Both the position numbers and the translations under genes were made by a program. Positions 4,890 to 61,900 of a DNA stretch of 64,000 nt are shown in pieces; position 1 is the stretch's first letter, and every line of letters starts with the position of its first letter. The stretch is from Eledone cirrhosa (taxonomy: Eukaryota): contig OZ024743.1 of assembly GCA_964016885.1 (NCBI GenBank), positions 156,736,001 to 156,800,000 on the forward strand, written 5' to 3'. The notes under the pieces are model-generated. The model had not been told where the DNA came from, did no database searches, and saw nothing but the letters and a program-made list of their open reading frames with translations.

Positions 4890-5076
4890 GGTGGATTGGC
4901 TGTATCGGTAGAGGGTCGGACGCCATGCTTTCCAGCATAGTTACGTCCCTTTACGATCTGAGTTCAAATCCCGCCGAGGTTGACTTTGCCTTTCATCCTT
5001 ACAGGGTCGATAAAATAAAGTACCAGTCATGCACTGGGTGATTGCAGGCCTTTGGGCTTAAGTAGAAACAATTATT
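4890..5076 (+). mobile_element. tRNA-derived SINE (Nin/Deu-like core), copy 1
   Basis: A-box-like TGGCTGTATCGG, B-box GAGTTCAAATCC, core GCCTTTCATCC..GGGTCGATAAA and tail GTAGAAACAATTATT. A ~27-bp TSD sits at 4866-4892 and 5071-5097 (2 mismatches). Confidence 0.9.
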
Positions 5077-5925
5077 TGTGTATTTTGCCATATAGGTAAT
5101 TCATTTATAAATATTTCTAAGCCTTTGTTTCTCATTTTCTTACCTTCGTTACATTACCCTATTCATTTTGCAATATATTAGTGATTTTACTTAATTCTTC
5201 TTTCGTTCTTCCTGCCTTGTCGCATTTGTGCAATCCGACTCTAATATCAATTCGTCTTTCAAATTTATGTGCTTTCTTCGATAGTGTTTCCAGTTTTAAA
5301 TCGCCGGCTAATTTTTCCATACAAAAGTGATGATTCACTGCTCTTCTATAGCATTGTAGAGCTCAATATATATATGGAAGTTAACGCAACGAACAAGAGA
5401 ATGATGTTATGGTGTTTCTAGGTGTGTTAGGCCTATATATTTCTACTATTCCTGATTTATTTCACTTCGTCACCTTTTTACAAATCGTAATATATATGAA
5501 GTTCTTTTGTGTAGATATGTCCTACCTGTTATAAGTTTATGCAAGAGCACACGCTGTATGGAACGTAATTCTTTAAGAATATCAAGTAATCATTACGTTT
5601 CGAAATTCATAGGTTCGTAATTTTTTTTCAAACATTTTTTAGTAGATTGTATTTCTTCAGCGATATATTTCAGGTAATACAAATTCATTGTAAGATTCTC
5701 CTTTATTTCTCACGCAAGTTTGTTAAGTGTATAATCAGCTCGTGTAAGGCAGTGCATACGTCAAATGTCATATTCCCACGTGTAATTTGCTTCATTCATT
5801 CAAATGAAACATGTTAGAAATTGTAATGCAAAATTTTGACGTGCAGAATAATATATTTTAATCCATATATTTCAGGAAATATCTACACAAACACTCCTTC
5901 TCATGATCATTCTCCCTCCCTATAA

Positions 5926-11635: not shown

Positions 11636-11808
11636 TGGCAGTATCGGTAGAGGGTCGGACGCCATGCTTTCCAGCATAGTTACGTCCCTTTACGATCTGA
11701 GTTCAAATCCCGCCGAGGTTGAATTTGCCTTTCATCCTTACGGGGTCGATAAAATAAAGTACCACTGGGTATTTGCTGGCCTTGTGCCTAAAGTAGAAAC
11801 ACTTATTT
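11636..11808 (+). mobile_element. tRNA-derived SINE, copy 2
   Basis: Near-identical to copy 1; TSD TTATTTGAT at 11628-11636 and 11803-11811. Confidence 0.9.
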
Positions 11809-13443
11809 GATATAATCTAATATAGAGAAACATAGCATTTTGTGAGAAGACCCATTCATCAACTTACTAAATAACAGTAATGAAAAACGTGGGTGAAAAC
11901 AAACATTAACTAATATTAATTAAAATTAAAGTGCCAGGATGGTGTGAGCCTCTTTTCACTATAGGTATAATTTATTGGCTGACCACATATGTTTGTTTTT
12001 TTTTAAATTTAACATTTATGCTTCTGTATTGGAATGTATTAACACATCACCAGGCTAGTCGATTCAGCAGACATTTCCATCGGAATTAAACACATACCAT
12101 GTTCATTTTTTATTTCCGCTTTTACGTATTTTTGTGCCAACGAAATTTAAATTTATGAAAATTAATAAGAAGCGTGTGAAATATCTTAAGGTCGTAGGTG
12201 AACTTTGCTGTGGTAATTTCAATTATACATCTAGAAAGACAGACCAGATATAATTTAATTTCCTACCCGGCATTCGTTATCTATATTGGCTTACCCCGTC
12301 TCTCCCTCTCACTTTCTCTCCCTCCCTCTCTCTCTCTATCTGCCCCCCTCTCTCTACCCTTCGCCTTCTCTGACATTACTGGTTGAACGTTTTAATATTG
12401 TAGATATAAATGTAAGTAATTGATTTCTAATCAACATCCCATGCCATATGACGTTTAACTTGTTCAATCGGCGAATCAGGATTATGTTCTCTCAGCATGA
12501 ACCTAATGGAAACAAAATATCCATGTTTTAACTGAAGCTTTTGCCACACATTACAGCCATTATTAATTCAAATTGCATGGTAGTAAAACGTATCAAAAAT
12601 CGGATAACATTTCACGCTGATTCGAACATATATTACGTCAACACAGTTGATAGGATTGTAAGACTTCAATATAATCACCAGATCAAATATTTGTTTGTAT
12701 TACATTATTTGCAAAACGTGCTATATTACAGTATAATTATTCAGAATGATAATGCTATTAAGTAGTACACTAACTACACTTAATATGAAAGTTCCTAGAT
12801 GGATAGAAGAATCAGTGGACAGATGTATGTAATTATCAATAATCTACTTGTCTGCAGGATCAGTAGTTTACATCCTGGTAATGCCACAGCATCGTGGCGT
12901 TGTCCAAGACTATAAATAGATTTACGAATCATTCAGCCTATGGTAAACACGCCATATCCAGTGTATGTACAGGTTACATATAGCCATTCCTTAGATATAT
13001 TTCACGAAGCTTTACTTCAACGGGGGTGTATATAAGGCAGGTATCATCAAAGCTATTTCAAAATCCACATATCAGAATAATTTCCATTGCCATCAAAACC
13101 AAATTTCAAATGAATATATTGAAGATATCTTGTTACACTTCACTATAGATTTGCTGAAATCAAATCACCAATGAGTAGTAGATTCGAAGTATTGGAAAGG
13201 TAATTGAGAAAAGAATTGCATTACTTTGTTAGGCTAAATCCCGCTGTGCTCAATTTTGATGTTCATCATTTCCATTCATAAAAAGAAAAGAAAAGAATAA
13301 CGGTTGAAATAACCAACTATATCCATCCTTAAAGTTTGAGCATTGTACTTATTTTATCAATCAATATTAACCGTGCAAATTTGAGACATATATGTACTGG
13401 ACTTAGAGACCTGGCTGAAAGTCCCATCTTTTCCAACGTGTAA

Positions 13444-17559: not shown

Positions 17560-17686
17560 GGAGTTGAGTTTTATTGTAGTACAATAAAGCAATGCAGATA
17601 TCGGATAAGAAGCACTCTACAGTTTGTAGGACAGGTGTATACATAATATATAAGAACAAAAGATGGTTAAATGAGTTCCATGTATT

Positions 17687-17750
17687 TTATTATGCGCATT
17701 TCAAAAACAAATATCATCATGCAATAATATTTGTGTTTTCATCAGATAAT
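17687..17750 (-). ncRNA. Type I hammerhead ribozyme (inverted pLTR arm)
   Basis: Reverse complement of the HHR at 19511-19575. Confidence 0.75.
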
Positions 17751-18309
17751 ACAGAAAGACATGATATGAAGGTTAAAAAACACTTGTGGATAGTTCAGTT
17801 TTAAATCAACATATGAGAAGTAGTTTTAGATTGATGTGTGATATTGGGAAAAATATTTTATTTAGAGGGGGGCGGGTTGGAAAGGATGAACAAGAGGAGG
17901 AGATGAGAGTAAAAAGTGGAGAGGGAGGAGTATAATGAGGAAGGATGAGATAGGAGGAGAGATGCGTGATAGAGAGAGAGAGATAGCTTTTATAACTGAG
18001 AAAGATATATTGTTTTACATAGAGAGGTTGAAAACCGTTGGAAGATAATGTATAAATTAAAAGAATTTGAAAATTAACGAAGAGAAAAATAATGTAAAGT
18101 TAAGGTTTGTATATTGAGGGTTTGATAATATGTGTGATAAAAAAGAAAATGTTAATATGTATTGAGAATAATATTTAAGGGTTTAATAATATGTGCGATG
18201 GAAAGAAAATGTTGATATGTATTATTAAAAAGAATAGGTAATTTAAGTAAGGGTATATTGTGAGATGAGCATGAATGAGTTAGATGAAAGGGAGAAAAGA
18301 ATAATGAAT

Positions 18310-18629
18310 TTTGGCTCCACTTCCACCTCTTTTAAAGCTCGTCTTTATAACCATCATTCGTCTTTTAAATACAAACTTAAAAGAACCAACACGGCTCTCT
18401 CAGAACTCATATGGTCCTTGAAAGACAAAAATATTAAATATAGCATCTTTTGGAAGAAGGTTTCTTCTGCGTCTACATGAACAGTTCTCTATCCAAAATT
18501 TGCAATCTCTGTCTAAATGAAAAATTTACCATTATTTCTAATTTAGATTCTATAATAAATAGACGCACTGACTTGTTTTCTATCTGCTTGCATAAATTCC
18601 ATAAAACATTTCACAAAGTATACAGCTAA
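18310..18629 (+). pseudogene. PLE GIY-YIG endonuclease C-terminal fragment (Naiad-like)
   Basis: FGSTSTSFKARLYNHHSSF..TALSELIWSLKDK..W, a frameshift, then CNLCLNEK..INRRTD..CLH..* (TAA 18627-18629). Confidence 0.85.
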
Positions 18630-19510
18630 TATTCAATTCTTTATCAATTTAGAATCTTTTTCTCAAAGGCACATATATATATACACTTCTTTTAAAAATA
18701 TACCCATCTTTCTACCTTATTTCAAAGGTTATTATACATTCTATAATACTTGTTACTCATTCTACATCGCTCCTATTTATCACTTCCCTTTCTTCTCTTC
18801 TTCTTTTAATGTCTAACCCCTAATATGTACCTGTTCTCACTCTTGCCTAACATAGAATCAATTATTACATAATACAATACATTCTTACTCTATATCACCT
18901 TGTAAAAATCCTTCGTAAACATATACATTTTTTTGACGTTAGATTATTCATCCTCAATTCATTATTCTCTTCTCCCTTTCATCTACTCATTCATGCTCAT
19001 CTCACAATATACCCTTACTTAAATTACCTATTCTTTTTAATAATACATATCAACATTTTCTTTCCATCGCACATATTATTAAACCCTTAAATATTATTCT
19101 CAATAGATATTAACATTTTCTTTTTTATCACACATATTGTCAAACCCCTCAATATACAAACCTTAACTTTACATTATTTTTCTCTTCGTTAATTTTCAAA
19201 TTCTTTTAATTTATACATTATCTTCCAACGGTTTTCAACCTCTCTATGTAAAACAATATATCTTTCTCAGTTATAAAAGCTATCTCTCTCTCTCTATCAC
19301 CCATCTCTCCTCCTATCTCATCCTTCCTCATTATTCTCCCCCCTCTCCACTTTTTTCTCTCATCTCCTCCACTTGTTCATCCTTTCCAACCCGCCCCCCT
19401 CTAAATAAAATATTTTTCCCAATATCACACATCAATCTAAAACTACTTCTCATATGTTAAAACTGAACTATCCACAAATGTTTTTTAACCTTCATATCAT
19501 GTCTTCCTGT

Positions 19511-19575
19511 ATTATCTGATGAAAACACAAATATTATTGCATGATGATATTTGTTTTTGAAATGCGCATAATAAA
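19511..19575 (+). ncRNA. Type I hammerhead ribozyme
   Basis: TTAT-CTGATGA (19516-19522), AT-rich stem II, GAAA-TGCGCA-TA-ATAA. Stem I is TTAT/ATAA and stem III is minimal and palindromic, as in PLE HHRs. Confidence 0.75.
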
Positions 19576-19608
19576 ATACATGGAACTCTATTAACCATCT
19601 TTTGTTCT

Positions 19609-19705
<97 letters not shown>

Positions 19706-23966: not shown

Positions 23967-26900
23967 ATCCTGGGTATGACATTAAACTACATCCAGTGGC
24001 AAGGCTCCAGTTCGGGAGTTCAGGAGATGTGGGGAATGTGGAGTTACCCCTTAGTTGTCATGACTGCCAGGTCTGCCCTGGCCCGGGGTGGTAGTACCTG
24101 TTAGGGCTCCATTTATGGGTTAAATAACTACCTTATTCGAGTGGCGCCGGTAAGGTATTGTCAGCCATTGAGAAGAAATATGGAGAATCGATCTAACAGC
24201 ACTAGGGTTAGAGCCCCTAATTACACTGTCAAGGAGCAGCCTGGTAGTTATGACTCTGCTGGCTTAGAGCCACAGAGAGGGCCAGTGGATGATGGATCAG
24301 CTGTCTCTGAGACAAATATAAAGAATGCAGTTTTGTCCTGCAGAAGAGCCATCAAAATGGGCACTTTGAATGTGAGGACTATTCGGACGCTGGAGAAGAG
24401 AGAGGAGTTGGGACATCTGTTCGAGGAGAGTGGTATACAGATACTTGCGATCCAAGAACACAGGATTCTACACGATGAGCTCGTGAGGAGTGTGATGATC
24501 GGGAGGAAGAGCCAGTTCATCACTACATCGGCAGTGAATAACACAACAAATGCTGCAGTAGGAGGAGTGGGTTTTGTGTTCAGTGCAAAAACCAATCTGT
24601 TGGTGAGGGAAATAATGCCTATCTCCCCGCGAGTGTTGAGGGTGACCTTCAATGGAAACCCAAGACTGACAGTCATCTCAGCCTATAGTCCAACCGAGGG
24701 GGACAGTGATGTGAATGCGGAGGAGTTCCATGAGGAGGTGTGTAGAGCTGTCAACACCACTCAGGCACACAATATCCTGCTTGTTTTGGGGGACTTCAAT
24801 GCACATCTGAGTAAGGAGGGCAGTGAAGATCCTTGCTGGTACTTCCATAACAACACCAACCGAAATGGAAGACTACTGAGAGACACCCTGCTGGAGGCGA
24901 ACTTGATGGCGACCAACCTAGGGTTTAGGAAGAATCTGGGGAAGATGTGGATCTACATCTCAGATATGCACCTGTCCAAGTCCCAGATTGATTTCATTCT
25001 GGTAGGAAAAAGTGTCGGAATAGTGTTCTGAACACGGAACCATACAGCTATTTCAGTACACTGGGTAGTGACCACCGGCTTGTTATGAGTGAGGTCCGCG
25101 TGAGCTTAAGAAAGAGCAAGGCTCAGCCCCAGAGAACAATCTATGACTGGGGAGCTTTCAAGGAAGATGATAAGCTACAGGAGAAGTTCACGGTGGAAGT
25201 GAGAAACAGGTTTAGTGCTCTGTGTGGAGAGTCAGAGGAGAGAGAGATTGGATGGACTGAGGAGAGTGTGACGAGGAGGTACGGGCACTTCACCAATGCA
25301 GTGGCGGAAGCAAGTGAAACCCTGGTGCCGAGGAAAAAGAACAAAGGGAAGCACGTCAGCTCTGCAAACCCAAAAGTGTGTGCAGCCAGAGAACACCTGA
25401 AAGCTGCCAGGGACCAATTCCATGCTGATCCTACGGAGGAGAGAATGGAGACTGTGGAGGTGATGAGGGAAGAGCTCTGTACCGCTTACACTGAGGTCAG
25501 AGAGGAGGCACTGATAGAGAAGATCAGAAGTGTGGAGAGAGCGGTTGACAGATCTGGATGTAAGGAGAGCTGGATCAACGAGATCACAGGGAGGAAGAGA
25601 AGGTGTTCGAGTCAGATCCAGGGAACGGGGCCCGAGGATAGGAAGAGGAAATGGCTAGACCATTTTAGGACCCTACTAGGAGAGCTACCCTCCACAGCCC
25701 AGAGCACTGGGGAGATCAGGCGGCTGTTTGAGGAACTGGATGTTGAGACAGAGCCCTTCACCAGAGATGAGCTTCAGAGAGCCAAGAAGAGGATCAAGGA
25801 GGGCAAGGCTCATGGAGAAGATGGAGTGGCATCAGAGGTGATGAAGAGGTGTGATTTTGATGATATCATCCTGGGGTTCTGTAACGGGGCACTGGAGAAA
25901 GGAGTTGCCCCGAATCAGTGGAGGATCAGTAACATCGTCCCAGTGCCAAAGAAGGGAGATCTCTCTAACACCAACAACTACCGGGGGATCTCACTGACAT
26001 CACTTGTGGCAAAGACCCTCAACAGGATGATTCTTAACAAGATCCAGCCTGAGATGGAGAAGAAGCTCAGGGACAACCAGAACGGCTTCAGAGAGGGTAG
26101 GTCAACCAACAGTCACATCCTGATGCTGAGGAGGATATTAGAGGGAGCTAGAGCAAAGTGCCCTCCTGCGGTCATGGTTTTCATTGACTTTAGGAAGGCC
26201 TTTGATTATGTGGCCCGTTACTGCCTGATGAAGATCTTACAGGCTTATGGAATCCCCAAGAAGATAGTGGACCTGATTTCACTGCTCTACACCAACACCA
26301 AAGCCCAAGTCATTACACCTGATGGGATGACAGAGTTCTTTGAGATACTGGCTGGAGTGCTCCAGGGAGATACATTGGCTCCCTACCTTTTTATCATCGT
26401 AGTGGACTATTGTTATGCGCCTTGCACTGGATAAACACCAGGACTCTGGCTTTACTGTAGCACCGGCTCAGAGCAGGAGAGTTAGGGCGAAAAAGGTATC
26501 GGATGCTGAATTTGCCGACGACATAGTTTTGGTGACAAATACAGTGAAGGAGGCAGAGGATTTGATGCGGGAGGTTGAGACTGTGTCGATGAGTGTGGGG
26601 CTGAGAATGAATGAGACTAAAACAAAATATCTGGTAGAGAATGTTGAGAAGCCAGAGGGGATCACTAATGTAGGCGGGAAGCGGCTGGAATTGGTTGAGG
26701 ACTTCCTGTATTTGGGAGCAAAGATTGGAATACGGAAGATGATGTGGTTGAGAGGAAGAGCAAGGCCTGGGCGGCGTGCCACAGCTTGAGATCGGTGTGG
26801 AAGTCGGACCTTCGTAGAGACATGAAAATCCGCCTCTTCATTGCTGTAGTGGAGTCTATGCTGCTGTATGGGTCTGAGACTTGGACACTGACCAAGAAAC

Positions 26901-27268
26901 TCACTCAGATGGTGGATGGGTGCTACACGAGAATGCTGAGGATGGCTCTGAACATTAATCAGTATACACTGAGGATGAAAAACTCAGAGCTGTATGGGAG
27001 CATCCCAAACGTCAGCTCAAAAGTTACACAGAGGAGACTGAGGTTAGCTGGACATGCTCACCGACATCCAGAGTTGACATTGCACTCAGTACTCCTTTGG
27101 GAGCCCCTACATGGACACACTAGAAGAGGAAGACCAAGGTTAACGTATGTTGATGCCCTAAGGACAGACACTGGTCTGTTTGAGATGCAGGACATGGCAG
27201 CGATAATGAGGGACAGAGACCGCTGGGGAGAACTCGTCCATGGATCTCGGGAATTTTACCCGCCTTAG
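23967..27268 (+). mobile_element. Full-length RTE-clade LINE
   Basis: Single APE-RT frame, 3.3 kb, flanked by a perfect 9-bp TSD ATATCTTAT (23958-23966 and 27269-27277). Confidence 0.93.
24180..27268 (+). pseudogene. RTE APE endonuclease-reverse transcriptase, three frameshifts
   Basis: Motifs GTLNVRT, LAIQEHR, AYSPT, LGDFNA, QIDFIL, SDH, NYRGISL, QNGFR, FIDFRKAFD, GVLQGDTLAPYLF, FADD, FLYLG, LLYGSETW, GRPR. Frameshifts near 25010, 26415 and 26730. Confidence 0.93.
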
Positions 27269-28679: not shown

Positions 28680-28723
28680 GAGTGTTTGTGTGTGTGTGTG
28701 TGTGTATTCGTAAGTGAAAAATA

Positions 28724-28913
28724 ATAATTGTTTCTACTTTAGGCACAAGGCCAGCAATTACCCACTGCATTACTGGTACTTTATTTTATCGACCCCGTAA
28801 GGATGAAAGGCAAAGTCAACCTCGGCGGGATTTGAACTCAGCTCGTAAAGGGACGTAACTATGCTGGAAAGCATGGCGTTCGACCCTCCACCGATACTGC
28901 CAATCAACCGCCC
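28724..28913 (-). mobile_element. tRNA-derived SINE, full-length copy
   Basis: Complete reverse-complement copy; perfect 18-bp TSD TAAGTGAAAAATAATAAT at 28711-28728 and 28914-28931. Confidence 0.93.
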
Positions 28914-37006: not shown

Positions 37007-37198
37007 GTATAGGATTATCCAAGATGCAGTGATGGTTAATTACTACACTGGATATGGTTGACGTACGGTAAGAGGTTACTCTACGAGTTATGGAAGAATT
37101 GTTCAAGAAACTTAGTTCCTGATCCTTCAGTATTCCGGAGTGTATATAAAGAATGAATAATAACAGGTAGACATCATAAAAAGGTAGTTTATTCCGTG

Positions 37199-37310
37199 TG
37201 CTTACAAGTGTTTCCACGGTGGTACTGCAGCCTAGTTCCGCTACGTGCAAATTCACAAGTATTTGCAGAACTCGAATATCCAATGCTGTGACCACTGTTT
37301 CCTCAGAGCA
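37199..37310 (-). ncRNA. Type I hammerhead ribozyme with extended stem II
   Basis: Reverse complement of 37955-38066. Confidence 0.7.
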
Positions 37311-37954
37311 GAATGGTAAATATACAATGTAAAAACCCTTAAGTGGGGTTGTTGGGGAAGATAGAGTGGAACAGGAAGAGAGAAAAGTAGGGAAGATGGA
37401 GAGAGAAGGAAAGATATGCAGGGGTTGGAGAAGTAGGAGAGAGTGGCTTGTAGATATCTTAATCAAAATGTTATGGTAGGGGTTTTATTAGTTACTTTTG
37501 GAGAGATGCGTAGATAGTTGAGGTCGGAATTATTTATTGCCCCAGAGGTCAAGTTCATAGATGTTCATAGATGTTGATTACTACTACAAAACCAAAAGTT
37601 CACTCACCACATATACTTTATCTGTCCCCTCTCTACCTATATATCTCTCTCTACATCCATTACACTCTCTCTCTCTCACCTTTGACCTACCTCCCTCTCA
37701 ACATCTATGAACTTGACCTCTGGGGCAATAAATAATTCCGACCTCAACTATCTACGCATCTCTCCAAAAGTAACTAATAAAACCCCTACCATAACATTTT
37801 GATTAAGATATCTACAAGCCACTCTCTCCTACTTCTCCAACCCCTGCATATCTTTCCTTCTCTCTCCATCTTCCCTACTTTTCTCTCTTCCTGTTCCACT
37901 CTATCTTCCCCAACAACCCCACTTAAGGGTTTTTACATTGTATATTTACCATTC

Positions 37955-38066
37955 TGCTCTGAGGAAACAGTGGTCACAGCATTGGATATTCGAGTTCTGC
38001 AAATACTTGTGAATTTGCACGTAGCGGAACTAGGCTGCAGTACCACCGTGGAAACACTTGTAAGCA
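37955..38066 (+). ncRNA. Type I hammerhead ribozyme with extended stem II
   Basis: TGCT-CTGAGGA (37959-37965), ACAGTGGT..ACCACCGT, GAAA (38051), CACTTG-TA-AGCA, followed by AATAAA. Confidence 0.7.
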
Positions 38067-38542
38067 CACGGAATAAACTACCTTTTTATGATGTCTACCT
38101 GTTATTATTCATTCTTTATATATATATATATATATATATACATATATATATTTACAATATATATATATATATAATTATGTTCGTTACGTGTGTAACACCA
38201 CCTACAGGCGGTGTGCCGTTCGAAGTACTAAATGCTGTTACAAGATTTGTTTCGTCTGGCTTGTATTCCAACGTTACCGCCGTAGTGTGCCAGAGTAAAT
38301 ACATTTTAAAAAGTCGAAGTCATTGTTACAGCATATGAAGTAAACGATTTAGATGTCTCTTATCACATATAAGCGAGCATGTCTAACGAGAAGTCGAAAA
38401 AGATTCGGGCCTCATCAGCTTGTTTGTACGCTGAGCTAATCGATAAAGTTTCAACAGATGCTGCAACACTGACTACGACAATTTAAATTTCACTATTTAC
38501 TGAGATGTTTAAGTATTACAGACTAGCAACCTTTTAATTAAA

Positions 38543-39309: not shown

Positions 39310-40530
39310 CATTTCTATGTTTAGATATTATTTTAATTTCTATGTTGTCTATGTTACCGTCATGTTGTTGTCTGGCGTGTTCTTATAATACTGAACCGTT
39401 TATTCGTCCTTTTTGTTCCCCCCAGTATTGGTCTATCTTTTCACCTATGCTACGAGCTTTCTTACATATGTATGTTGCTGTCATGTTTCTGGAGGTACCC
39501 TCTGTGCATCTTATGCTATAGACTACGTTTCTAGTTTTACAGTTTATCCGGGGGTTTACTTTATATATAATACATTTCCTATTAGTACAGTGGGTTTTCT
39601 TAAAGGGGTATGTTTTGCTGATCAGTTATTTGATGGTGGTTCCTGACTTTTCTACCACCTTAATCTTTATGTGGGTCTTTCTCAGGGCCATTCTACACTG
39701 GTTGGCTAATTTTCTTTTCAGGGGTAGCGTCCACAAACATAACACTATGGTATCTCTGGTTGTCGTACCATGAGGTGGCTTTCCCTATCTTATCGTTAGT
39801 CCTATCTAAGCTATTCCATGATTTGCTCCTGTATAATGGGCAAATTCCTTTCATGCGCAGTTCTATGAGGGTCTTATACTTCTCCATGGCTCCTTCGTAT
39901 ACTCTGATTCTGTCTATTTGGTTGTAGCCAAAGAACTGCATACGGTTGATGAAGTGTTTGATGTGTCTTTCCATTTCTGTTGGGTCGCACATGCGCGACA
40001 TGTTCTTCATCACTGGTACCAAGTCTGCGATCAGAATATTAAAATTTGCACTACTGGACGTTGCTGAGTTTTTGAGTATCAGGTATTTAGAGGCCATGGG
40101 TTTAGCGTAGTATGAGTGCGGAATTTTGGCCCTCTCGTCTATAGTGTTAATCCAGATTTCAGTGTCTAATACAGGTAGTCTACTGTTAGGGTGTTTGGAA
40201 AGGTAGCCGATAGTTTCAGTTATACTCTGGTGTATGGAATTAGCTATCTGCTGGATGCTTTGCATTGTGCTACATTCTAAATCACACTTGTTAGTACTCT
40301 CTTGTGAGGGTGTCCTCATTACTATATTAATGTCTTCTACATAACGAGAAGTACATGATGAGGTCTATGGAGCTCTCACCAATGAGATCTTTGAATCTCC
40401 TTTTCCACCATACCATAAATGCTTGGCAACGTCACCAGCTATGCTGGCGGCAATGGGTTCTCCCTCATTTTGGGTGTAGATCTTCTTGTTGAATTTGAAT
40501 ATATAGCCCTCTAGGGTAGATTTAATACTA
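39310..40530 (-). mobile_element. Decayed PLE (RT C-terminal half plus GIY-YIG)
   Basis: YIFKFNKKIYTQNEG, YVEDINI, TMQSIQQIANSI, RLPVLD, YYAKPM, PLYRSKSW, VMFVDATP, IKVVEKSG and NCKTRNVVYSIRC..YI. The clade differs from the 6-kb element. Confidence 0.8.
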
Positions 40531-45009: not shown

Positions 45010-47300
45010 GGTTTGATAACTAAATCCAGGTCGGTCCAACACTCAACACGTTGCGTATAATGGATATTACAGACATACTGCATTGACGTTTGCGGCAAAT
45101 TACATAATCGATTAAATGCAACTGGGTGCTTCCATGTTCTATCCTTCAAGTGTGCGCTTACAATTAGCACCTTGGACCTGTACACAGATCCAACAGCTAC
45201 TATTAGCTTTCCCTTCCCAACTCCATACCTTCCAATTCTTTCTCACATGTGAATTATCACCTTTCAAAATGTTCTGCTCACCATGTGGAATTACATGAAG
45301 AGTATTAAATAAATGTTTCTACTTTAGGCACAAGGCCAGCAATCACCCAGTGCATTACTGGTACTTTATTTTATCGACTCCGTAAGGATGAAAGGCAAAG
45401 TCAACCTCGGCGGGATTTGAACTCAGATCGTAAAGGGACGTAACTATGCTGGAAAGCATGGCGTCCGACACTCTACCGATACTGCCAATCCACGAAACGC
45501 TGTCATTTTTACTTCATTGCTATTAAGTGTTGGAGCATATACAAGAAAAATGACATGTCTGCAAAGTCTTTGGCTGGTCACTAATCTCACAAGAAAGCTC
45601 TGATTATTTTGTTCTTTGAGAATTTCGCCCCAATCAGAAAAATGTAAATCCACAAGGTGAGTGTTTGAAAGAGCTGCTATATCTTATAGCAGAGCGATGC
45701 AGTAATTTTTGAGACTAAGGTTGTTCTGCGTTCTCGAAATAATCCATTCGGTTTTTCAGTCAGAGTTCGTTCATTCCAGCAATCTATGGTGATTTGATCA
45801 TTTTTATTAATATTATTGTTTTTTCTGTTGTTTCAAGTTCATATACGGACGTTCATATGTCAAGTTAAGCTGGTAAAAGAGAAATTGGGCAGGCAATGTT
45901 TTTACAATTGTTTTACATCATCTCTTTCTGCATCAATGACTCTTCTTAGGCTGTAATCAGACACGGAGTTTACAACACAGTGCATCTATTAGATGGAACT
46001 GCTACAGCCACATTTAAGGATTTGTTTAAAGAGAATGGTCAGGAGATAAAAGCAATATTGTTGAAGAAGTATGCCATCAGGTTGCAAATGTTGAATAAAA
46101 GGCATATCAAGAGAAGGTTATCGACTTGAAGAACGTTTTTAGAAGGCTAAATCTGATGCCGAGCAAGAATTGTGTTACATGGTAGTGAAGGATATGATAT
46201 TCAGACTTCAGCGTATTCAAGGAATTCAATGGAATTCTATAATCTGATAAAACTAGTCTTTGGATCACGATCCACTATGATAACACCATTCAGATCAAAG
46301 GATGGCTAAAATCTACTAACACAGATGAATAGATTAACGAAACGACTGAGAGAACATTTCAATGATTTATTAAATAGAGAAACTCAGGGTGACTAAAATG
46401 TTATAATCAATATTGATCTGGCCTTCCAAGCCCTGTAGTATTATATATTAGTATCTAGAAAGTTACTGTAGTTGAAACTGCAGGAAAGAGTGGATTATTT
46501 ACAGAGATTTTCAGATATGGGGGGGGGGGTTAGTTTATGCATGAATTAATTCTGGGAATATGGTGAGAGGTTGAAATATCAAATAATTGGGAAGACACAA
46601 TACTTATAACTTCATACAAAACGAAACGACAGCAGGTAGAATGTGAATGTTATAGAAGATTTTCTCTTTTCTGTGCAACATGGAAACTACTTGAATCATC
46701 CATGTTTTGTAAACTAGACAATAATATATCAAACCTGATCTTGACTGACTGATATAGTAGATGGACAACTAATTAAATTAATCAATATGTACATATGTTT
46801 CCATATTCGGGAAGTACAATTAACCAGTATTGCACAATGGATGACGAAATAGCCTCCAGTATTAAAAAAAGCAACCGATTCCTTGGCAGTATTTAGAGCA
46901 CGTGTTTTGAGCCGTAAGTGAATAAGAAAAGATAAAACACCTACAGTATGCAATGCATCTGTACTGTCAACTGACTTATATTGCTCTGAGACCTGGGTTG
47001 TCTATCGCAGATACATGAAACTCCTGGAACTGTTTTAGCAGGGTTGCGGGCGTAACATTCTCTGAGTTCTCTGGAGCATACACACACACTGAAATATAAC
47101 AAAATGTAGTTGTAGAAACTTCTGACGCTTACACCCACATGCACCGGTGCTAAGGAGTAAGCCAAGCTGGTAGATTTGATGATGGCACAATGAGTTGGTG
47201 GTAGCACAATCACAAAGCAAGTTTAAATATTATTTGATTGATATATGAAACCGTAGATTCGAAACGAAACGCAATTATGATGGACTGATAAAAACGAAAA
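45010..47300. mobile_element. Highly decayed RTE-BovB-like LINE with inverted 5' part
   Basis: APE motifs on the minus strand (VYAPTL, TWKHP, ECWTD; 45010-45800). Downstream motifs on the plus strand (RSKDG, KTAGKSG..EIFRYGG, CECYR, LYCSETW; 45980-47300). Confidence 0.6.
45312..45493 (-). mobile_element. tRNA-derived SINE inserted into RTE remnant
   Basis: Near full-length reverse-complement copy. Confidence 0.9.
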
Positions 47301-47670: not shown

Positions 47671-47762
<92 letters not shown>

Positions 47763-47875
47763 GTTGTAATAAAATGAAAACGAAATTTCATTTCTCACTC
47801 TTAGTACGGCACTTACTTAAATGTAAGTATGTATGTATACGTCCATACATATATGTATACAGACGTACAGTAGCA

Positions 47876-47927
<52 letters not shown>

Positions 47928-48322
47928 TACATACAGGTACACATACATATATGTACGTATCAGTTTAGCGGACGCTTATTATAGCGGACGCTTATTATAG
48001 CGCCCGCTTTGTTCGTTTGTAAACAAACTGAACAGCCTGAATTTATGCCGCACGGTGTGGCATAAAAAGCAATATATATATATGCATGCTACTGTACGTC
48101 TGTATACATATATGTATGGACGTATACATACATACTTACATTTAAGTAAGTGCCGTACTAAGAGTGAGAAATGAAATTTCGTTTTCATTTTATTACAACT
48201 CATCGTTTTCGGTGCGCCTGACCGATTTAACTCACTCGATATGCAAATTAGGCTGCTCAGCCGTTAATTTTCATAAGGAAAGTATATACTTTCGAACGTT
48301 CAACTATCTGGCAGATGGGTAT

Positions 48323-48365
48323 ACAGTGCTGATGATAGCTAACAAGCTTGAAACTAGTATATCGT
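48323..48365 (+). ncRNA. Type I hammerhead ribozyme, element A copy 1
   Basis: ACAGTG-CTGATGA-TAGCT-AACA-AGCTT-GAAA-CTAG-TA-TATCGT. Confidence 0.7.
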
Positions 48366-48787
48366 TCCTGTGTCAGTGTTGAACAAAAAGGTGACGTGGT
48401 TGCCTTAACACCGTGCGGCATACATTCAGGCTGTTCAGTTTGTTTATAAACGAACAAAGCGGGCGCTATAATAAGCGTCCGCTAAACTGATACGTACATA
48501 TATGTATGTGTACCTGTATGTATATATGTATATATATATATATATATATGCATGCTACTGTACGTCTGTATACATATATGTACGGACGTATACATACATA
48601 CTTACATTTAAGTAAGTGACGTACTAAGAGTGAGAAATGAAATTTCATTTTCATTTTATTACAACTCATCGTTTTCGGTGCGCCTGACCGATTTAACTCA
48701 CTCGATATGCAAATTAGGCTGCTCAGCCGTTAATTTTTTAAGGAAAGTATATACTTTCGAACGTTCAACTATCTGGCAGATGGGTAT

Positions 48788-48830
48788 ACGGTGCTGATGA
48801 TAACTAACAAGCTTGAAACTAGTACATCGT
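48788..48830 (+). ncRNA. Type I hammerhead ribozyme, element A copy 2
   Basis: ACGGTG-CTGATGA-TAACT-AACA-AGCTT-GAAA-CTAG-TA-CATCGT; stem I ACGGTG/CATCGT is fully paired. Confidence 0.7.
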
Positions 48831-48981
48831 TCCTGTGTCAGTGTTGAACAAAAAGGTGGCGTGGTTGCCTTAACACCGTGCGGCATAAATTCAGGCTGTT
48901 CAGTTTGTTTACAAACGAACAAAGCGGGCGCTATAATAAGCGTTCGCTAAACTGATGCGTACATATATGTATGTGTACCTG

Positions 48982-49019
<38 letters not shown>

Positions 49020-49086
49020 TGCTACTGTACGTCTGTATACATATATGTATGGACGTATACATACATACTTACACATATATATATAT

Positions 49087-49601: not shown

Positions 49602-49782
49602 TTGGCAGTATCGGTAGAGGGTCGGACGCCATCCTTTCCAGCGTAGTTACGTCCCTTTACGATCTGAGTTCAAATCCCGCCGAGGTTGACTTTGCCTTTC
49701 ATCCTTACGGGGTCGATAAAATAAAGTACCAGTAATGTACTGGGTAATTGCTGGCCTTGTGCCTAAAGTAGAAACAATTATT
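49602..49782 (+). mobile_element. tRNA-derived SINE
   Basis: Near full-length copy; TSD ATTATTT at 49597-49603 and 49777-49783. Confidence 0.9.
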
Positions 49783-49846
49783 TTATCTGATGACAACACA
49801 ATTTTTGTCCAAGGATGATGTTGTTTTCGAAAAGCGCATAATAAAA
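49781..49846 (+). ncRNA. Type I hammerhead ribozyme (partly decayed)
   Basis: TTTTAT-CTGATGA-CAACAC..GATGTTGTTTTC-GAAA-AGCGCA-TA-ATAAAA. Confidence 0.6.
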
Positions 49847-52549: not shown

Positions 52550-53207
52550 ATATAGAAATGGCTTCTACAGGACTAGACATGTTTCATTCGGGAGTACTTT
52601 ACCTACCGATCTATGAAAATATCATAGATATAACAGTAACCGTTGAAAATCCTGGACAGCTTATTCAAAATTCGTTCATCTCTCAGCACTGTCATTCACT
52701 CAACAGGTACTGAGATAAAAGTAGACTAGAGGCTATATAGCTTTTGCGTATGGAACACTTGGTAGATATTCTCATTTGCATGTAGCAAAACGAAAACAGC
52801 TGGAAATGCTCGTTTGCCTATTAGAAGTGTATATGAAAATATATACGATTTTTTTTATGTACAATATACTCATGAGAGCCTTGATATCGAAAGGAACTTC
52901 TTTTTGTTTTTGGTTGTATATATGTCTTCATATACACCCCTAGCATCTGTGTATGAATGTATGTATTTATGTATGTATGTATGTAGTTATGTATGCATTT
53001 ATGTATGTATGTATGCATGTATGTATGTAATTTGCCTGTTTTAGAGTCATGCCAACAAAATCTAAAGAAAAATGAAAACAAATCTGTTATTGAAAAATGA
53101 AAGTAAAATCATCTGGAAAGAAAGTAGAAACCAGAACAAATAAAGCAAGACAAGGAGAGAAAGGGTAAGGGTTGTATTAAAATACAAATAAATAACTTAT
53201 TTAATAA

Positions 53208-53543
53208 ATAATTGTTTCTACTTTAGGCACAAGGCCATCAATTGCCCAGTGCATTACTGGTACGTTATTTTATCGAACCGTAAGGATGAAAGGCAAAGTC
53301 AACCTCGGCGGGATTTGAGGTTAACTTTGCCTTTCATCCTTATTTAATAAATAATTGTTTTTACTTTTAGCACCAGGCCAGCAATTATTCCAGTGCATTA
53401 CTGGTACTTTATTTTATCGACCCCGTAAGGATGAAAGGCAAAGTTAACCTCGGCGGGATTTGAACTCAGATAATAAAGGGAGGTAACTCTATGCTTCAAA
53501 GCATGGCGCCCGACACTCTACCAATACTGCCAATCCACCGCCC
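53208..53543 (-). mobile_element. SINE: one full copy (53351-53543) plus a partial copy with foldback (53208-53342)
   Basis: The target sequence TATTTAATAAATAAT occurs at 53198 and 53341, and in split form at 53544; a 26-bp hairpin spans 53281-53342. Confidence 0.85.
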
Positions 53544-54969: not shown

Positions 54970-55070
<101 letters not shown>

Positions 55071-55137
55071 CAAGGTTTAGCAAATAAGAAAATGTTTCAA
55101 AATAAATTTCAAAAAGTTCACTGTACTTACTATGGTT

Positions 55138-55224
55138 ACCTTTACCGAAAGGGTTTCGAGTCTCAAAAATAAATGGATAGTCCTTGTGGGCCTCCATTGA
55201 AAATATATACTCTCGTCAGGAGGT
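55138..55224 (-). ncRNA. Type I hammerhead ribozyme, element B copy 1
   Basis: Minus strand reads ACCTC-CTGACGA-GAGT..ACTC-GAAA-CC-CTTTC-GG-TA-AAGGT. Confidence 0.8.
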
Positions 55225-55621
55225 TCTTTTCATTCGTAAGAATATAAAATTCCAGAGTTTGAATTACGAACTGGCGCTATTCAAAATTGTTCCCGAGATG
55301 TGAATGAATGATGTGGAAGCAATTCTGTCCAGTGCCGTGTGCAAAGATAGCAGGCAGAGGCAGGGAGGTCAATCTTCTACCACTATAAATAGCAGCAGTC
55401 AAACGACCAAATTTTATCTCGACCAGGGGGAGATTAATAATAATAAAGTATATATCCCTACACGCAAAAAAACATATAGGGACACATGTATTATCCAACA
55501 ATATGCCAATGTGGTTCTATGGCAAGTTAATAAATTAACGAGCCAGAACATATATAATCAAGGTTTAGCAAATAAAAGTTTCAAAATAAATTTCAAAAAA
55601 TTCACTGTACTTACTATGGTT

Positions 55622-55708
55622 ACATTTACCGAATGGGTTTCGAGTCTCAAAAATAAATGGATAGTCATTGCGGGCCTCCATCGAAAATATAAACTCTCGT
55701 CAGAAGGT
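55622..55708 (-). ncRNA. Type I hammerhead ribozyme, element B copy 2
   Basis: Minus strand reads ACCTT-CTGACGA-GAGT..ACTC-GAAA-CC-CATTC-GG-TA-AATGT. The consensus of both copies gives a perfect stem I, ACCTT/AAGGT. Confidence 0.8.
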
Positions 55709-55989
55709 TCTTTTCAATCGGAGAATATAAAATTCCCGAGTTCGAATTACGAACTGGCGCTATTCAAAATTGTTCCCGAGATGAGAATGAATGATGTGGA
55801 AGCAATTCTGTCCAGTGAGTACAGGGAATTTTTTGAAATTTATTTTGAAATTTTTTTTAATTTGCTAAACCTTGATTATATATGTTCTCGCTCGTTAATT
55901 TATTAACCTGCCACAGTACCACATTGGCATATGTTTGGATAATACATGTGTCCCTATATGTTTTTTTGCGTGTAGGAATATAAACTTTA

Positions 55990-56025
<36 letters not shown>

Positions 56026-56074
56026 CATATATATATCATATATATATACATACTTACTTATATATATATATATA

Positions 56075-56712
56075 TTAGAAATATAAGCTTTCACCGTATT
56101 TTTGACTAAAGACATGTTTAGCCTGATAGTGGAGTTTAGAACTCTCAGAGAAATAGAAAAAGATGAGTATTGACGTACATGGGAGTCGAACCCACACCTT
56201 TGGTTATACAGACCACTGTGCTTCCATTAAACCAACACATCACCCATCTCCTTCCATTCAAATTAGAAGTTACATTCTTAGCAAGTAAATGATAAGTAAG
56301 TATGTTTTGAAATAGTGAACGAGTTTGAAATTAGTATTATAAGCTTTCACCGTATTTTTTACTAAAGAAATATTTTTTAGCCTGATAGTGGGGTTTAGAA
56401 CCCTCAGAGAAACGGAAAAGATGAGTATAAAACATGGGAGTCAAACCTACATATTTGGTTATCCAGACCACTGTGCTACCGTTACACCAACACAACACTA
56501 TCATGGTAATAATTTCTTTAGTCAAAAATACCGTGAAAGCTTATATTTCTAATTTCAAACTCGCTCACTTGTCATTTACTTGCTAAGAATGTAGCTTCTA
56601 ATTTGAATGGAAGGAGATGGGTGATGTGTTGGTGTAATGGTAGCACAGTGATCTGGATAACCAAAGGGGAATATTTCTAATTTCAAAGTAGCTCGCTGTT
56701 TCAAAACATACT

Positions 56713-56715
<3 letters not shown>
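56075..56715 (-). mobile_element. 256-bp tandem repeat containing a tRNA-like sequence, with inverted arm
   Basis: AAGCTTTCACCGTATT at 56085 and 56341; inverted segments at 56512-56668 and 56672-56715; (TA)n on both sides. Confidence 0.75.
56171..56241 (-). pseudogene. tRNA-like cloverleaf (tRNA-derived head, probably not a functional tRNA)
   Basis: The consensus of three copies, GATGTGT-TG-GTGT-AATGGTA-GCAC-A-GTGGT-CTG(G/T)ATA-ACCAA-AGGT-GTGGG-TTCGACT-CCCAT-GTACGTC, has A and B boxes. Other copies lie at ~56429-56496 (-) and 56623-56668 (+, truncated). Confidence 0.65.
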
Positions 56716-56774
<59 letters not shown>

Positions 56775-56775
<1 letters not shown>

Positions 56776-57900
56776 GGTTATCTTAAAAATGCGTGCGTAG
56801 GCGGCATGCCGGTGGAGCACTAAATTCTTGCGCAGAGCAGAGTATAGTACAATAAGTATATGGAACAAGGATTATTTTTGCATCATAACACATCTAATAA
56901 AATATTACATATGTTTCACTATCGATCAACACGAGGCAAGATCTATTATACCTCGAACCTGACTCTGTAATCAAAAGGTCGTCAGATATACTTAGTATAT
57001 GAGTTCGTCTCCGATTCATAATGAGCCAACTTGATGTCGAAATCCTCCCTTCGTATGACTCTGCGGATAGCGCTGGTGGTTTTCTCTCCCAGGTATGGGA
57101 TCTTGAGGAAGCATTTATCCCTCATGTCGTGTTGCCTCCTGTACCTAGGGTCCCTTATTCTGTTGGTAAAAGATCCTGGATATCAGTTGGCCTCCAATTA
57201 CCCTGTAGAATATCTTGGCGTGGGTGGTGCCACACACTGGATCATTGCATCTGTCTTTTATCCGCTTGATCTCGTTTGTGATGTATCCTCTTTTGGCACT
57301 GCCAGGAAGAGCAGGCTTGAAGTGGACAAACAGGTTTCTGCAAGCCGCCTTGTGGATCCCCCCGTATTGCATGATGCTAAGTCGGAAATGAAGGAGGGCT
57401 ATGGACCCGCCGTTGCTGGAGCGCTCTATACTGTTCTCATCCGTGTTATTGAAAAGCTCGTAAATCCCGTCAGCCGTTTCTGGGGAGGATGTAAGGATGA
57501 GGATATCTTCCACATATCTTGAGAAGAATGCGGCGTAGGGGTAGCAGATATGAAGCCCTTTGTGTTTTAGCTGGTCAAGGTATACCTGAGAGGCTTCACC
57601 CCCATGTGTAGCCGTGGGGTCTGCTGGCATGTGTGGCCAAGAAAGTCGAAATAAGTGTCGTTGACGATAAGAGATAGGAGGACCTGGTGGATGTCGGTGG
57701 TGATTCCGAAGCAGTGAGGCTGGTGGATAATATTCGCTCCATCTGTATATCGACGACCGGGAATGCTGGAACCTAGATGTATAGAGTGACTACGTCAAGG
57801 CCGAAGGCCTACCTTTCAAAAGTTGATGTAAGCTCGTGAAGCAGACATTTCGAAGTCGAATCATTCTGAAATCTACGTCGGATTAGCGATTCTGGATGTA
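56775..57900 (-). mobile_element. Decayed PLE (RT fragment plus pLTR)
   Basis: FGLDVVTLY.VP, RYVEDILIL, KAACRNLFVHFKPALP..KRGYITNEIKRIKDRC; a 3' HHR and an end at (TA)n. Confidence 0.75.
56902..56990 (-). ncRNA. Type I hammerhead ribozyme (PLE pLTR)
   Basis: Minus strand reads ATAT-CTGACGA-CCTTTTGATTA..TGATCGATAGT-GAAA-CATATG-TA-ATAT. Confidence 0.65.
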
Positions 57901-58921: not shown

Positions 58922-61900
58922 CTACAGGTTTATATACAAAGAAGTCCCATTCACTCGGGCCATTTTTGCCACATTCACCCAGCTTTCAGCGAATTTACTG
59001 GGGTGTAGCACCTCTCTCTCCACTCTCACCTTCCTTCTGAAGTGATACTTAAAGAAGGTGATAAGTTGTTGTCCGGAAAGAAAGGTGTTTGCCCTCAGTC
59101 CTGTTAACCTCGTCCACCATATTACCTCTTTCGCCATAGCCACCAGACAGAGGAAAACTGCCTCTCCTTCGTTCTTAAATGAAGGCGGCGGGGTGAGCTT
59201 CACGATGGACTCGGCTGACAACTGGATGCGTCCCACACGTGACAGCAGCTGTTCGACATAATTCCACAGTTCGGTCACCCTTGGGCACTGAACAATTGCG
59301 TGCAGAACGGTTTTGATGTCATGCTCGCATCTTGGACACGTCTTTTTGGCAGGATCTCTGCCAGGGCGTCCGTGTTGGTAGATTTTGTCTCGAACTAGTA
59401 GAGCTCCTCGGTAGCAATGGCAGGCCAGAGACCTCAGGAAGTTATCCATAGGCCCTGGACGGAAAGTCCTTCCGAACAGTCTGGTCAGTTCATCCTCCTA
59501 GTTGCCTAGATTTTCCCGGAGAACGTCGTCGCACTTATCCTCCACTAATCCCCCATAGAATGTCGAAGTGGAGTCTCCGCTGATTGCTGTTTCCGATTGG
59601 TAGAGGGCTGTGAGCGCCCGTAGGCACTCGAGGTGCCATGCACCCATTTTCGGTCTTCGCTTGACCAAGGACTGCAGCTCTGTTAGTGAGACGAGTTGTG
59701 GAAGAGCTTGTCTCACAAACGACAGCCACACCGGTTCACCGGTCAGGAATACCAGGATATGACGTAGCCTCAGCGCATGTTTGCGCATTATCAGCCTCGG
59801 CATGCCGATCCACCCGTTAGAAGGGTGTTGACAGCAGATGGATCTCCTCACTAATGTAGCTTGCTTCTTCCAGAGGAACTTGAAGAGTAGGCGTTCCATT
59901 TTGTTAAGGTATTCGCGGGGGCAAGGCACAACTGTCAAGCGGTAGTAGATGACGGAAGCTATGTAAGTGTTCGCCACTTCCTCTCGACCTTTCAAGGAGA
60001 GTTTGCACTCAGACCACTTCTGTGTAAGTGCAAACACCTTCGCCGTGACCTCGTTCCAGTTTTTGTACATCTGGAGGTCTGGACCGAACCAGACACCGAG
60101 CAATTTCACCGGTCCTTCCGTCCAACGTCCTACGACACTGTCGGAAGGCATGGGTTTGCCTCTCCATGTGCCGAGTTTCAAACCGACAGACTTGTTTGGG
60201 TTTAGTCTTGCTCCTGTCAAAGTTTCGTATTGCTGTAATAGGTTGCTGATTACCCTGATTTCCTAAGTTTTCGACACCATTACTGTTATGTCGTCGGCAT
60301 AAGCTGACGCTGCTTTCCGTAGTCCTGGTTCGATCGGGATGCCTTGCAACAGCTCCAACACCCGCAGTAACGGCTCGAGAGTCAGTACATACAGAATGGA
60401 AGAGAGAGGGCATCCCTGGCGGATGGAACCAATGATTTGGAATGGCTCTGATAGGTAACCATTCACCTTGACTGCCGAGCAGATGCTGGTGTGTATGGTA
60501 GCGATCCAGCCTCTGAAGTCGAGACCGAAGCCGGCCGCCTTGAGAACTGCTTCCAAGTGTTGTGGTGGACCCTATCAAATGCCTTAGACTGATCTAATTT
60601 TTATCAGAGCCCCACCAAAGCCAGGTTTACACCCTACCCTCTCTATGATGTATCGCATGAGGTGTACGTTGTCGTATATGGACCTGGTCGGGATTGCACA
60701 CGTTTGGGCTTCCCCTACGAGGTTCTCGACGACAAGCGCCAGCCTTGCTGCTAACACCTTGGCCAAAATCTTTAACTCTGCGTTGAGCAGAATTATGGGC
60801 CTGAAATTGCTTATCTCATCCCCCTTGTTCTCATCTTTCATGATCAACGCTACTACGCCTCTGCCTACAGAACTTGGAATCCTCCCGTTCTGCTGCCAGT
60901 TGCAGTAGACCGATTTGAGGACGCCAAAGAACAAGTCTGGCATGCCTATGTAAATCTCATAGGGTAGACCATATAAACCGGGTGATTTGCGTTTCCCGCA
61001 GCGGCCTAGGGCATCTTCTATTTAGCCCGCTGTGATCCGGTTTCGCAGCTCTCCGCACCCGTGCTCGAGAGTCGCGGTACGCCGTCGAGGTAGGAGCTGA
61101 AGTCCATCACCTCGCTGGATGTACCGTTTTGCCCGAACAGTTGTTCAAAATGCTGCTGGAAGGACGCGCACATCTACTTGGATTCAAGTATAATGCGTCC
61201 ATCTTTGTCTTGCAACACCTTTGGCTCCTTCGTTTCTTAGAGCATGTGTTCTACTACTGACAATACAACCTTCGTGTTTCACGTTGAAGAACTGGTCTGG
61301 TGCCGTTCTCGCCGCTAGCACGTCAGCTGTACTGTCATTCCTAAGTGCCTCTTCTATTTTAGATACGAGTTCCTTTTCAGTTTTGATTTTTTCTAAAGCT
61401 ATTTCCTTGCTAAATGCTATCGATTCTATTCTAATTGCTCTCTTCAGAGAGCTCCACCACCTGTTGTTGACGACGCCCCCGTCAACTGGCACTTAACTAA
61501 GGTGCTAATCCGTTTCCTGTAGGCCTTACGCGCCGGAAGCGACATGTTTAGCTTCCAGCACCCGGGTCCCTGTCTATCTGTTCTATCAAGGTTGACTACG
61601 CAGGTGACTAATTTGTGGTCTGAATAGGCAAACATATGCATTTGTGGACAGCTTAATGTTTCCTTATCATTCTGTCTAATTAAAAATCTATCTAAATAAG
61701 ATCTGATCTAGAAGACTCAGTGCGGTTTCTCCACGTCCTCAGTGGTGCACTTAGGAAGTCAAGTCGATATCTATCAGCCAGTTGGAATTGGATGATGAGA
61801 TTTTTGAGGCTATTACACCCCCCCCCCTCTATTATCACAAGCTCCTACATAATCCCAACGTACGTCTAAGATGCCATTCCAGTCCCCCGCTAACACTAAG

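Follow-up and report, generated by a model that had tools for sequence, protein, structure and literature searches.

A 256-bp non-coding unit that carries a tRNA-like cloverleaf with intact A and B boxes belongs to a high-copy dispersed family, one end of which is recurrently joined to TA runs. At the locus described here, the unit is arranged in tandem and inverted copies with a tail, and it holds no hammerhead core. The element is a ribozyme-less variant of non-LTR retrozymes. Solely from the geometry of the insertion, we infer a PLE as its partner, and mobilisation by a PLE from multi-unit RNA is very probable. For the element as a whole, the explanation that we favour on balance is that it would have been pasted into TA microsatellites by the RT and endonuclease of a PLE, and that its tRNA would act as an internal Pol III promoter on uncut RNA rather than as a cleavage signal.

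Layout of the locus and its neighbours

The window, that is, the whole 64-kb stretch of DNA that was analysed, is AT-rich, microsatellite-dense animal DNA. Its host is probably an octopus or a relative, as one protein match from the window was to Octopus sinensis (58% over 27% of the query). Within it, the locus consists of 1.66 tandem copies of the 256-bp unit and two inverted pieces, with (TA)n on either side; this layout had been described before, with a copy number of about 1.6 that is corrected here. The full unit (A1, 56074-56329) lies on the minus strand, which is the strand of the tRNA and the inferred RNA sense, and its left end stands against (TA)n without a tail. The partial tandem copy (A2, 56330-56498, minus strand) is pLTR-like and 5'-truncated, covers unit positions 1-170 with 84% identity in a gapped alignment, and has a decayed acceptor stem. 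Its start falls within 2 nt of the first base of its own tRNA (+1 ± 2). The inverted pieces are both on the plus strand and both cross the unit junction. Piece B (56496-56667) contains the last 58 nt of the unit, the junction, the leader with a 19-nt deletion and the 5' 45 nt of the tRNA, and its joint with A2 shows a 3-nt microhomology. Piece C (56671-56715) contains the last 11 nt of the unit and a tail of 34-38 nt, and stops at the recurrent terminus of the family. The A2/B and B/C joints of 56074-56715 are absent among the 15 of 48 read joints listed, and the layout of the locus is that of the assembly.

The tail is thus found on the right arm and not on the left arm. Within the tandem, a tail segment occupies 56296-56329 on the minus strand, and other copies meet TA runs at its far edge (56292-56296). 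The left TA run is imperfect (55988-56075), whereas the right (AT)n run is perfect (56716-56772). A 14-nt piece of the unit tail, oriented like the right arm, is embedded in the left run at 56048-56061 and could mark a mostly-TA target duplication or an aborted arm. A clean TSD was not present at the locus, as had been noted originally; the 10 informative nt that are repeated, at a distance of 18 nt of TA from the left end, are the unit's own tail sequence. The element holds no ORF of 120 aa and no ORF with RT and GIY-YIG.

In published PLE insertions, a truncated copy is described as standing before a full one and a further 5'-truncated copy as lying inverted at the 5' end; a tail of 30-40 bp is often confined to one end, and the targets are (TA)n (PMC8557442, in the portion available). 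Read on the tRNA strand, the locus has a partial tandem, an inverted 5'-truncated arm, a one-sided tail and a (TA)n target, that is, all four features of this layout. The same four are found in EN+ PLE insertions and in non-autonomous Chlamys elements such as MRC1 in that account. Unlike these, the present element has a tRNA module and no ORF, and a match of its 3' end to an autonomous family was not found in the 64-kb window. Searched against the rest of the window, the unit showed neither a 3' end shared with a PLE nor a LINE-related match.

Two hammerhead-bearing elements in the window are unrelated to the tRNA unit and have the same layout. The first, with a 488-bp unit, directly adjoins the tRNA element (55069-55990; cores at 55219 and 55703) and comprises 1.5 tandem copies and an inverted arm in TA runs; its hammerhead is of type I with a long stem II insertion and was missed by Rfam. 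The second, with a 466-bp unit and a minimal hammerhead on the plus strand (47762-49073; cores at 48329 and 48794), comprises 2.15 tandem copies and an inverted arm. Their end offsets are longer, at ~114 and ~60 nt. In both, the cores lie on the strand predicted by PLE polarity, and the polarity is thereby fixed. The inverted arm turns at unit position 59 in the 488-bp element and at position 58 in the tRNA element. One end of the 466-bp element stops at the same 9-mer as the right end of the tRNA element; all seven occurrences of this 9-mer in the window are in the 466-bp element, the tRNA element or the left TA run, and it was not seen at other TA junctions among the 48 runs listed.

The scan that recovered exact hammerhead cores in both neighbours found none in the tRNA unit, and its single match at one mismatch compares with 1.67 in shuffles. 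A hammerhead-like stretch on the plus strand (56123/56382) was rejected as it has two core mismatches, is antisense and stands at chance level. Since Rfam reported no hammerhead even in the neighbouring element, it is no test for hammerheads; for other ribozyme classes, which were searched by Rfam only, and for miRNA, the Rfam matches were far below threshold. Isolated minimal hammerhead-like cores occur at 34429 and 50280 (minus strand) and are possibly PLE 3' remnants.

Broken RT-like frames lie at 6297-8363, 39693-40364 and 57145-57789, and none has sequence in common with the tRNA unit. By their motifs, all three look PLE-like. A Cys-rich, GIY-YIG-like stretch closes the first, the Atlas leads for two of the three point to RT/HTH_animal clusters, and Pfam named none of them. 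Long inverted pairs near TA runs, at 17638-19623 (674 bp, 97%) and 37143-38122 (423 bp, 100%), are perhaps further two-armed insertions. Broken LINE-type frames were found at 24105-27268 and 58922-61021, with an RVT_1 match at 24992-26431. An ordinary SINE-like repeat of ~185 bp with constant ends is present in six near-full copies (4890-5077, 11636-11809, 28723-28909, 45303-45493, 49602-49783 and 53349-53539), one of which is accompanied by a partial tandem copy at 53206-53318 (tandem 53196-53463).

A high-copy family with one recurrent end

Public runs were aligned on a permuted unit (56140-56425, 286 bp) at 80% likeness, using four of the six listed runs. One sample, in two runs, gave 2,811 and 2,649 aligned contigs, and two other samples gave 2,924 and 2,548 aligned RAD reads. 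Only 300 of the 2,811 contigs and 24 of the 2,924 reads were at least 99% alike to the copy in the window, and one site was covered by up to 151 read starts. Read depth is not a copy number, and it is from these low shares and the starts per site that the repeat is seen to be a high-copy dispersed family of at least hundreds of loci. The evidence on variants comes from the best 40 of 164 rows and that on joints from the 15 of 48 listed. A1 differs from the family majority at no fewer than 9 of 190 positions, indicating that the insertion is not recent; A1 and A2 may share one template.

In all four runs, depth rises 6- to 8-fold between 56280-89 and 56300-09. At 56294, 135 reads of run X4 break off into (TA)n, and the TA-junction letter at 56295 is carried by 8 and 3 read starts and in 3 and 5 contigs. 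As this depth step and TA junction coincide with the end of piece C, the right end of the 56074-56715 locus is a recurrent terminus of the family joined to TA runs. The tail-less left end was not seen in the reads as a recurrent terminus. RAD read ends at 56264, 56332 and 56371-56375 were rejected as element ends because they were taken to be enzyme sites (AATT at 56261 and 56329, the third inferred from family variants).

On the other side, contig depth falls towards the 5' side of the RNA, from 441k at 56160 to 121k at 56200, 43k at 56240 and 7k at 56280. In 10-nt bins, depth shows no step either at the tRNA +1 position (56241) or at its discriminator, and there is no accumulation of ends at +1 or +73; 76% of the contig depth at 56230-39 is still present at 56250-59. 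Upstream of the tRNA stand 88 nt of family sequence, and 525 X4 reads cease to match the family ~20 nt into the 3' half of the tRNA. The peaks in contig depth are stretches where the window copy matches the family, so that alignment bias may account for some of the gradient, and RAD depth follows the AATT sites.

Nine of the 16 long pieces listed from other loci span the leader through the tail with 16-34 other letters, indicating that multi-unit copies exist elsewhere, as a minority of the signal. Strand changes occur in all four runs, with joints at 56178-56181, 56206, 56216 and 56235. Those at 56178-56181 overlap a CATG and are possibly library chimeras, although contigs show the same joints and read starts do not pile up there. 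Joints 'going back 254-262' were discarded as a tandem signal because they are the wrap of the permuted reference.

The original prediction of Penelope-type architecture and TA targeting in a non-autonomous, dispersed element is supported by these reads together with the layout. The read alignment shows that the repeat is not a unique rearrangement and that it has no fixed 5' tRNA head of the kind seen in tRNA-derived SINEs, given the lack of an edge at 56241 and the 88-nt leader in the family. TA targeting holds for the endpoints, but random circular permutation does not, since one outer end recurs.

The cloverleaf and the predicted leader-trailer helix

The 71-nt cloverleaf with A and B boxes (56171-56241, minus strand) was recognised by both Rfam and ARAGORN. 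It is the sole tRNA call of ARAGORN in the 64-kb window, where it was typed as tRNA-Tyr, and it scores 39.5 bits with the Rfam tRNA model against a gathering score of 29; the cloverleaf of A2 (56426-56496) reaches 28.2 bits, just below 29. In A1, 19 of the 21 listed pairs are formed, which leaves one pair of the D stem and the first pair of the anticodon stem broken. The only match to the A-box...B-box pattern in the 64-kb window lies inside the A1 tRNA, and a T5 run (56157-56161) follows 9 nt beyond the discriminator base. The earlier description of a 256-bp unit with a cloverleaf, both boxes and a T-run is thereby confirmed. The folding z was only -1.35 for the whole monomer and -0.25 for the tRNA alone. 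The best phage matches (tRNA-Trp, 77%, E 0.01-0.2) were uninformative as to isotype, and a 27-nt pattern gave no match against metagenome contigs.

Functional tRNAs typically carry a purine at position 37, and tRNA-Ser has a long variable arm. The cloverleaf has U at position 37 and a variable loop of 4 nt, and to judge from these letters it is not a working tRNA-Ser, in agreement with the original prediction. The loop triplet is GTA in A1 and GGA in A2 and B, as had been reported, except that the third tRNA copy, in B, comprises the 5' 45 nt only. In the family, GGA is found in 919 of 954 reads of run X4 and 765 of 804 of run X5 (~96%). The GTA triplet is private to A1, and the tRNA-Tyr call of ARAGORN is therefore an accident. 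The family-majority letter at 56230 restores the broken D-stem pair of A1, and no B-box or T-arm variant was found among the best 40 of 164 variant rows. A subfamily carries four linked changes at the 5' border of the tRNA (56236-56242; positions -1, +1, +2 and +6), which alter the pairing around the RNase P site; it accounts for 32-35% of X4 reads and ~7% of X1 contig depth.

In the predicted fold of the sense strand, the 18 nt immediately 5' of the tRNA (56242-56259, minus strand) pair with 56168-56151 (trailer strand 56151-56168, minus strand), lengthening the acceptor stem past a 3-nt bulge on the 3' side. The duplex has a predicted energy of -21.2 kcal/mol, compared with -9.6 ± 2.6 for shuffles, and only 1 of 5,000 shuffles was equally low; an unbroken run of 18 pairs occurred in none of 20,000. 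The antisense duplex reaches -8.3 kcal/mol, and the stalk is predicted on the tRNA strand only. For 15 of the 18 pairs, the pair probabilities in the local fold are 0.93-1.0. Five of the pairs are G-U. Of the five family variants listed in the stalk, those at 56155 (96% of X4 reads) and at 56250 and 56251 (~25%) each replace a G-U pair with a Watson-Crick pair, and the other two disrupt a pair (56246, 17%; 56242, 35%). Two-sided changes in the stalk were not seen among the best 40 of 164 variant rows. A small hairpin 3' of the stalk (56122-56148, minus strand) shows one two-sided change between A1 and A2, and its outer pairs vary across the family.

The T-run, which had been identified correctly as such, is part of the 3' strand of this predicted helix, and the helix itself had been missed. 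With T5 buried in it and six pairs lying beyond T5, the stalk would need an RNA that contains both the leader and a read-through trailer. In the letters of A1 and B there is no 5' bulge at the RNase P site, and the predicted pairing of the leader continues as far as the site. Such an 18-bp stalk is predicted to hinder, not invite, cutting, which would argue against monomer release by RNase P/Z and for an uncut read-through RNA.

Role of the tRNA, mode of mobilisation and known relatives

Both inverted arms cross the unit junction and the tRNA of A1 was copied intact; the templates were therefore multimers or circles with uncut tRNAs. The closest functional parallel is offered by schistosome Sm-alpha, which is tRNA-Gln-like and Pol III-transcribed and lies in tandem, with the upstream copy driving the next (PMC2770079, PMC6765202, available text). 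The Sm-alpha/Sj-alpha SINE-like elements share with the present family tRNA-derived A/B boxes, known here as sequence, in a short unit, tandem copies and a high copy number. By this analogy, the tRNA would most likely be a Pol III promoter. Unlike the tRNA unit, which lacks a hammerhead core, Sm-alpha has an active hammerhead, and the portions of the Sm-alpha/Sj-alpha accounts available to us contain no mention of an 18-bp leader-trailer stalk or of Penelope-type inverted arms (PMC2770079, PMC6765202).

In the model that we favour, the tRNA of the upstream copy would start transcription, in the pLTR role that it has in Sm-alpha, and the polymerase would pass T5 into the next unit, where the stalk would prevent cutting by RNase P. 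Both strands of a TA run, once cut, would serve the PLE enzyme as primers on the 3' portion of the multimeric RNA, and the two cDNA arms would stop at variable places, often inside the tRNA, before joining by microhomology. Pol III drive is plausible from the boxes and would need read-through of T5. Pol III would be expected to terminate at a T5 run that follows the tRNA by nine bases, and read-through is thus an assumption of the promoter model. The start of A2 at +1 ± 2 speaks for a promoter, as a single, post hoc coincidence, whereas the copy ends do not pile up at +1, although a Pol III start would tend to give such a pile-up in monomers. Two further observations count against the explanation as a whole, namely that tandem copies are a minority of the signal and that the ordinary SINE in the window likewise forms a partial tandem.

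The original prediction was that RNase P/Z cutting at the tRNA fold might replace the hammerhead in releasing monomers. In its wider form, a PLE-mobilised multimer would be cut at this processing site into monomers or circles by RNase P/Z, or by an anticodon-loop nuclease followed by RtcB. We regard this as unlikely, and monomer release by RNase P/Z is not supported, since copies run unbroken through the tRNA, depth shows neither a step at +1 nor one at the discriminator, ends do not accumulate at +1 or +73, and in the predicted fold the leader pairs without a 5' bulge. The better pairing of the cloverleaf in the family majority than in A1 and the start of A2 at +1 ± 2 would fit a processing site. 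DNA ends test processing only weakly, however, since those of the hammerhead neighbours are likewise not on the cut site. The ends left by RNase P/Z are not known to be ones that RtcB joins. Retrozyme circles are described as dependent on RtcB (PMC7229834, in part). The tRNA-like mascRNA of MALAT1 resembles the present fold in having an extended acceptor stem inside a longer RNA. According to the available part of that study, its extension promotes RNase P cleavage given a base bulged 5' of the site, and continuous stems impaired cleavage in mutants (PMC8457004). Whereas the extension of mascRNA measures 7 bp and has an A bulged out 5' of where RNase P cuts, the present stalk has 18 bp and a 3-nt bulge on the 3' side (PMC8457004). 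As trailers are stated to be generally without effect on eukaryotic RNase P (PMC8915964, in the text available), and as the subfamily with changes at -1, +1, +2 and +6 could open the RNase P site, the processing reading is weakened and not more than that.

A PLE-mobilised element could also be copied from a read-through Pol II transcript, in which the stalked tRNA would be a structural aid to RNA stability, export or RT loading, or a captured passenger, and not a promoter. T5 immediately behind the tRNA is in line with this, as is a stalk that would form only in a longer RNA with 18 nt of leader and six pairs past T5, and so is the missing pile-up at +1; moreover, Naiad and Chlamys PLEs are reported to work without hammerheads (PMC8557442, in part). 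But the A and B boxes fit the consensus and are free of B-box or T-arm variants in the best 40 of 164 rows, although the tRNA fold also constrains these bases, and we consider the passive role quite unlikely.

Origins without a PLE are, taken together, distinctly improbable. That the locus is an ordinary LINE-dependent tRNA SINE or a tRNA pseudogene satellite that underwent local duplication and inversion within an unstable TA tract is very improbable. The A/B boxes, high copy number, 5' truncation and possible mostly-TA TSD would suit a SINE, and SINEs of this kind form partial tandems in the window. Yet this reading is largely refuted because there is no edge at +1; family sequence precedes the tRNA by 88 nt, with 76% of the contig depth persisting across that border, strand-change joints and multi-unit pieces recur at other loci, and unrelated hammerhead units have the same layout. 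A pearl/DTC84/DINE-1-type DNA element with tandem core repeats is barely credible, because, although molluscs are known to have short tandem arrays beside microsatellites, the tRNA element has no separate left and right modules, subterminal inverted repeats, AA duplication or tetranucleotide segment, both its ends are internal points of the unit, and complete A/B boxes are reported as absent in DTC84 and pearl (PMC3879986, portion available).

Animal non-LTR retrozymes, which are proposed to be non-autonomous PLE derivatives, have non-coding tandem units of ~170-400 nt (PMC7229834; bioRxiv 10.64898/2026.07.22.740005; both in part). The 256-bp tandem unit resembles them in being short and non-coding, and two hammerhead units in the window share its layout, whereas the type I hammerhead per unit that defines retrozymes is missing from it. 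The word 'tRNA' does not occur in the main text of the bioRxiv article as available to us (10.64898/2026.07.22.740005). Among PLEs, too, hammerhead-free clades exist, as do non-autonomous head-to-tail families, including those of Chlamys, and Naiads are present in Octopus (PMC8557442, available portion). Helenus, Ajax and Cassandra TRIMs likewise have a small-RNA-derived Pol III module in the terminal repeat of a non-autonomous retroelement; they are described as LTR elements with PBS, PPT and TSDs, in contrast to the inverted arms, one-sided tail and TA targets found here (PMC10886601, in part).

A search of the literature found no published tRNA-bearing, hammerhead-free PLE passenger; repeat libraries such as Repbase, Dfam and that of Octopus vulgaris (PMC13282606, Zenodo) may hold the family under another label. 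The predicted 18-bp leader-trailer helix, which would extend the acceptor stem and bury T5, is new. It offers a sharp and cheap way to tell a promoter from a processing site.

Such a passenger, 256 nt long, high in copy number and free of a hammerhead, defines the minimal cis sequence and shows that short passengers can do without self-cleavage. Should the tRNA be a promoter, PLEs would have true SINE-like parasites other than Sm-alpha, and families like this one are probably filed as SINEs or tRNA pseudogenes, as illustrated by the tRNA-Tyr call that a private mutation drew from ARAGORN. More tentatively, and with considerable doubt, 'tRNA retrozymes' without a ribozyme may form a class of their own, as short parasites of PLEs with a stalked tRNA in place of the hammerhead module. 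In these, the tRNA would be a Pol III promoter with hidden terminator and processing sites, which would allow RNA to reach the PLE enzyme in multimeric or circular form, and the class would be the equivalent of SINEs for PLEs. PLE template choice and the building of tandem and inverted insertions are described as undefined (PMC8557442, in part); if such a class exists, it would provide a small natural substrate on which tandem and inverted insertion by PLEs could be studied.
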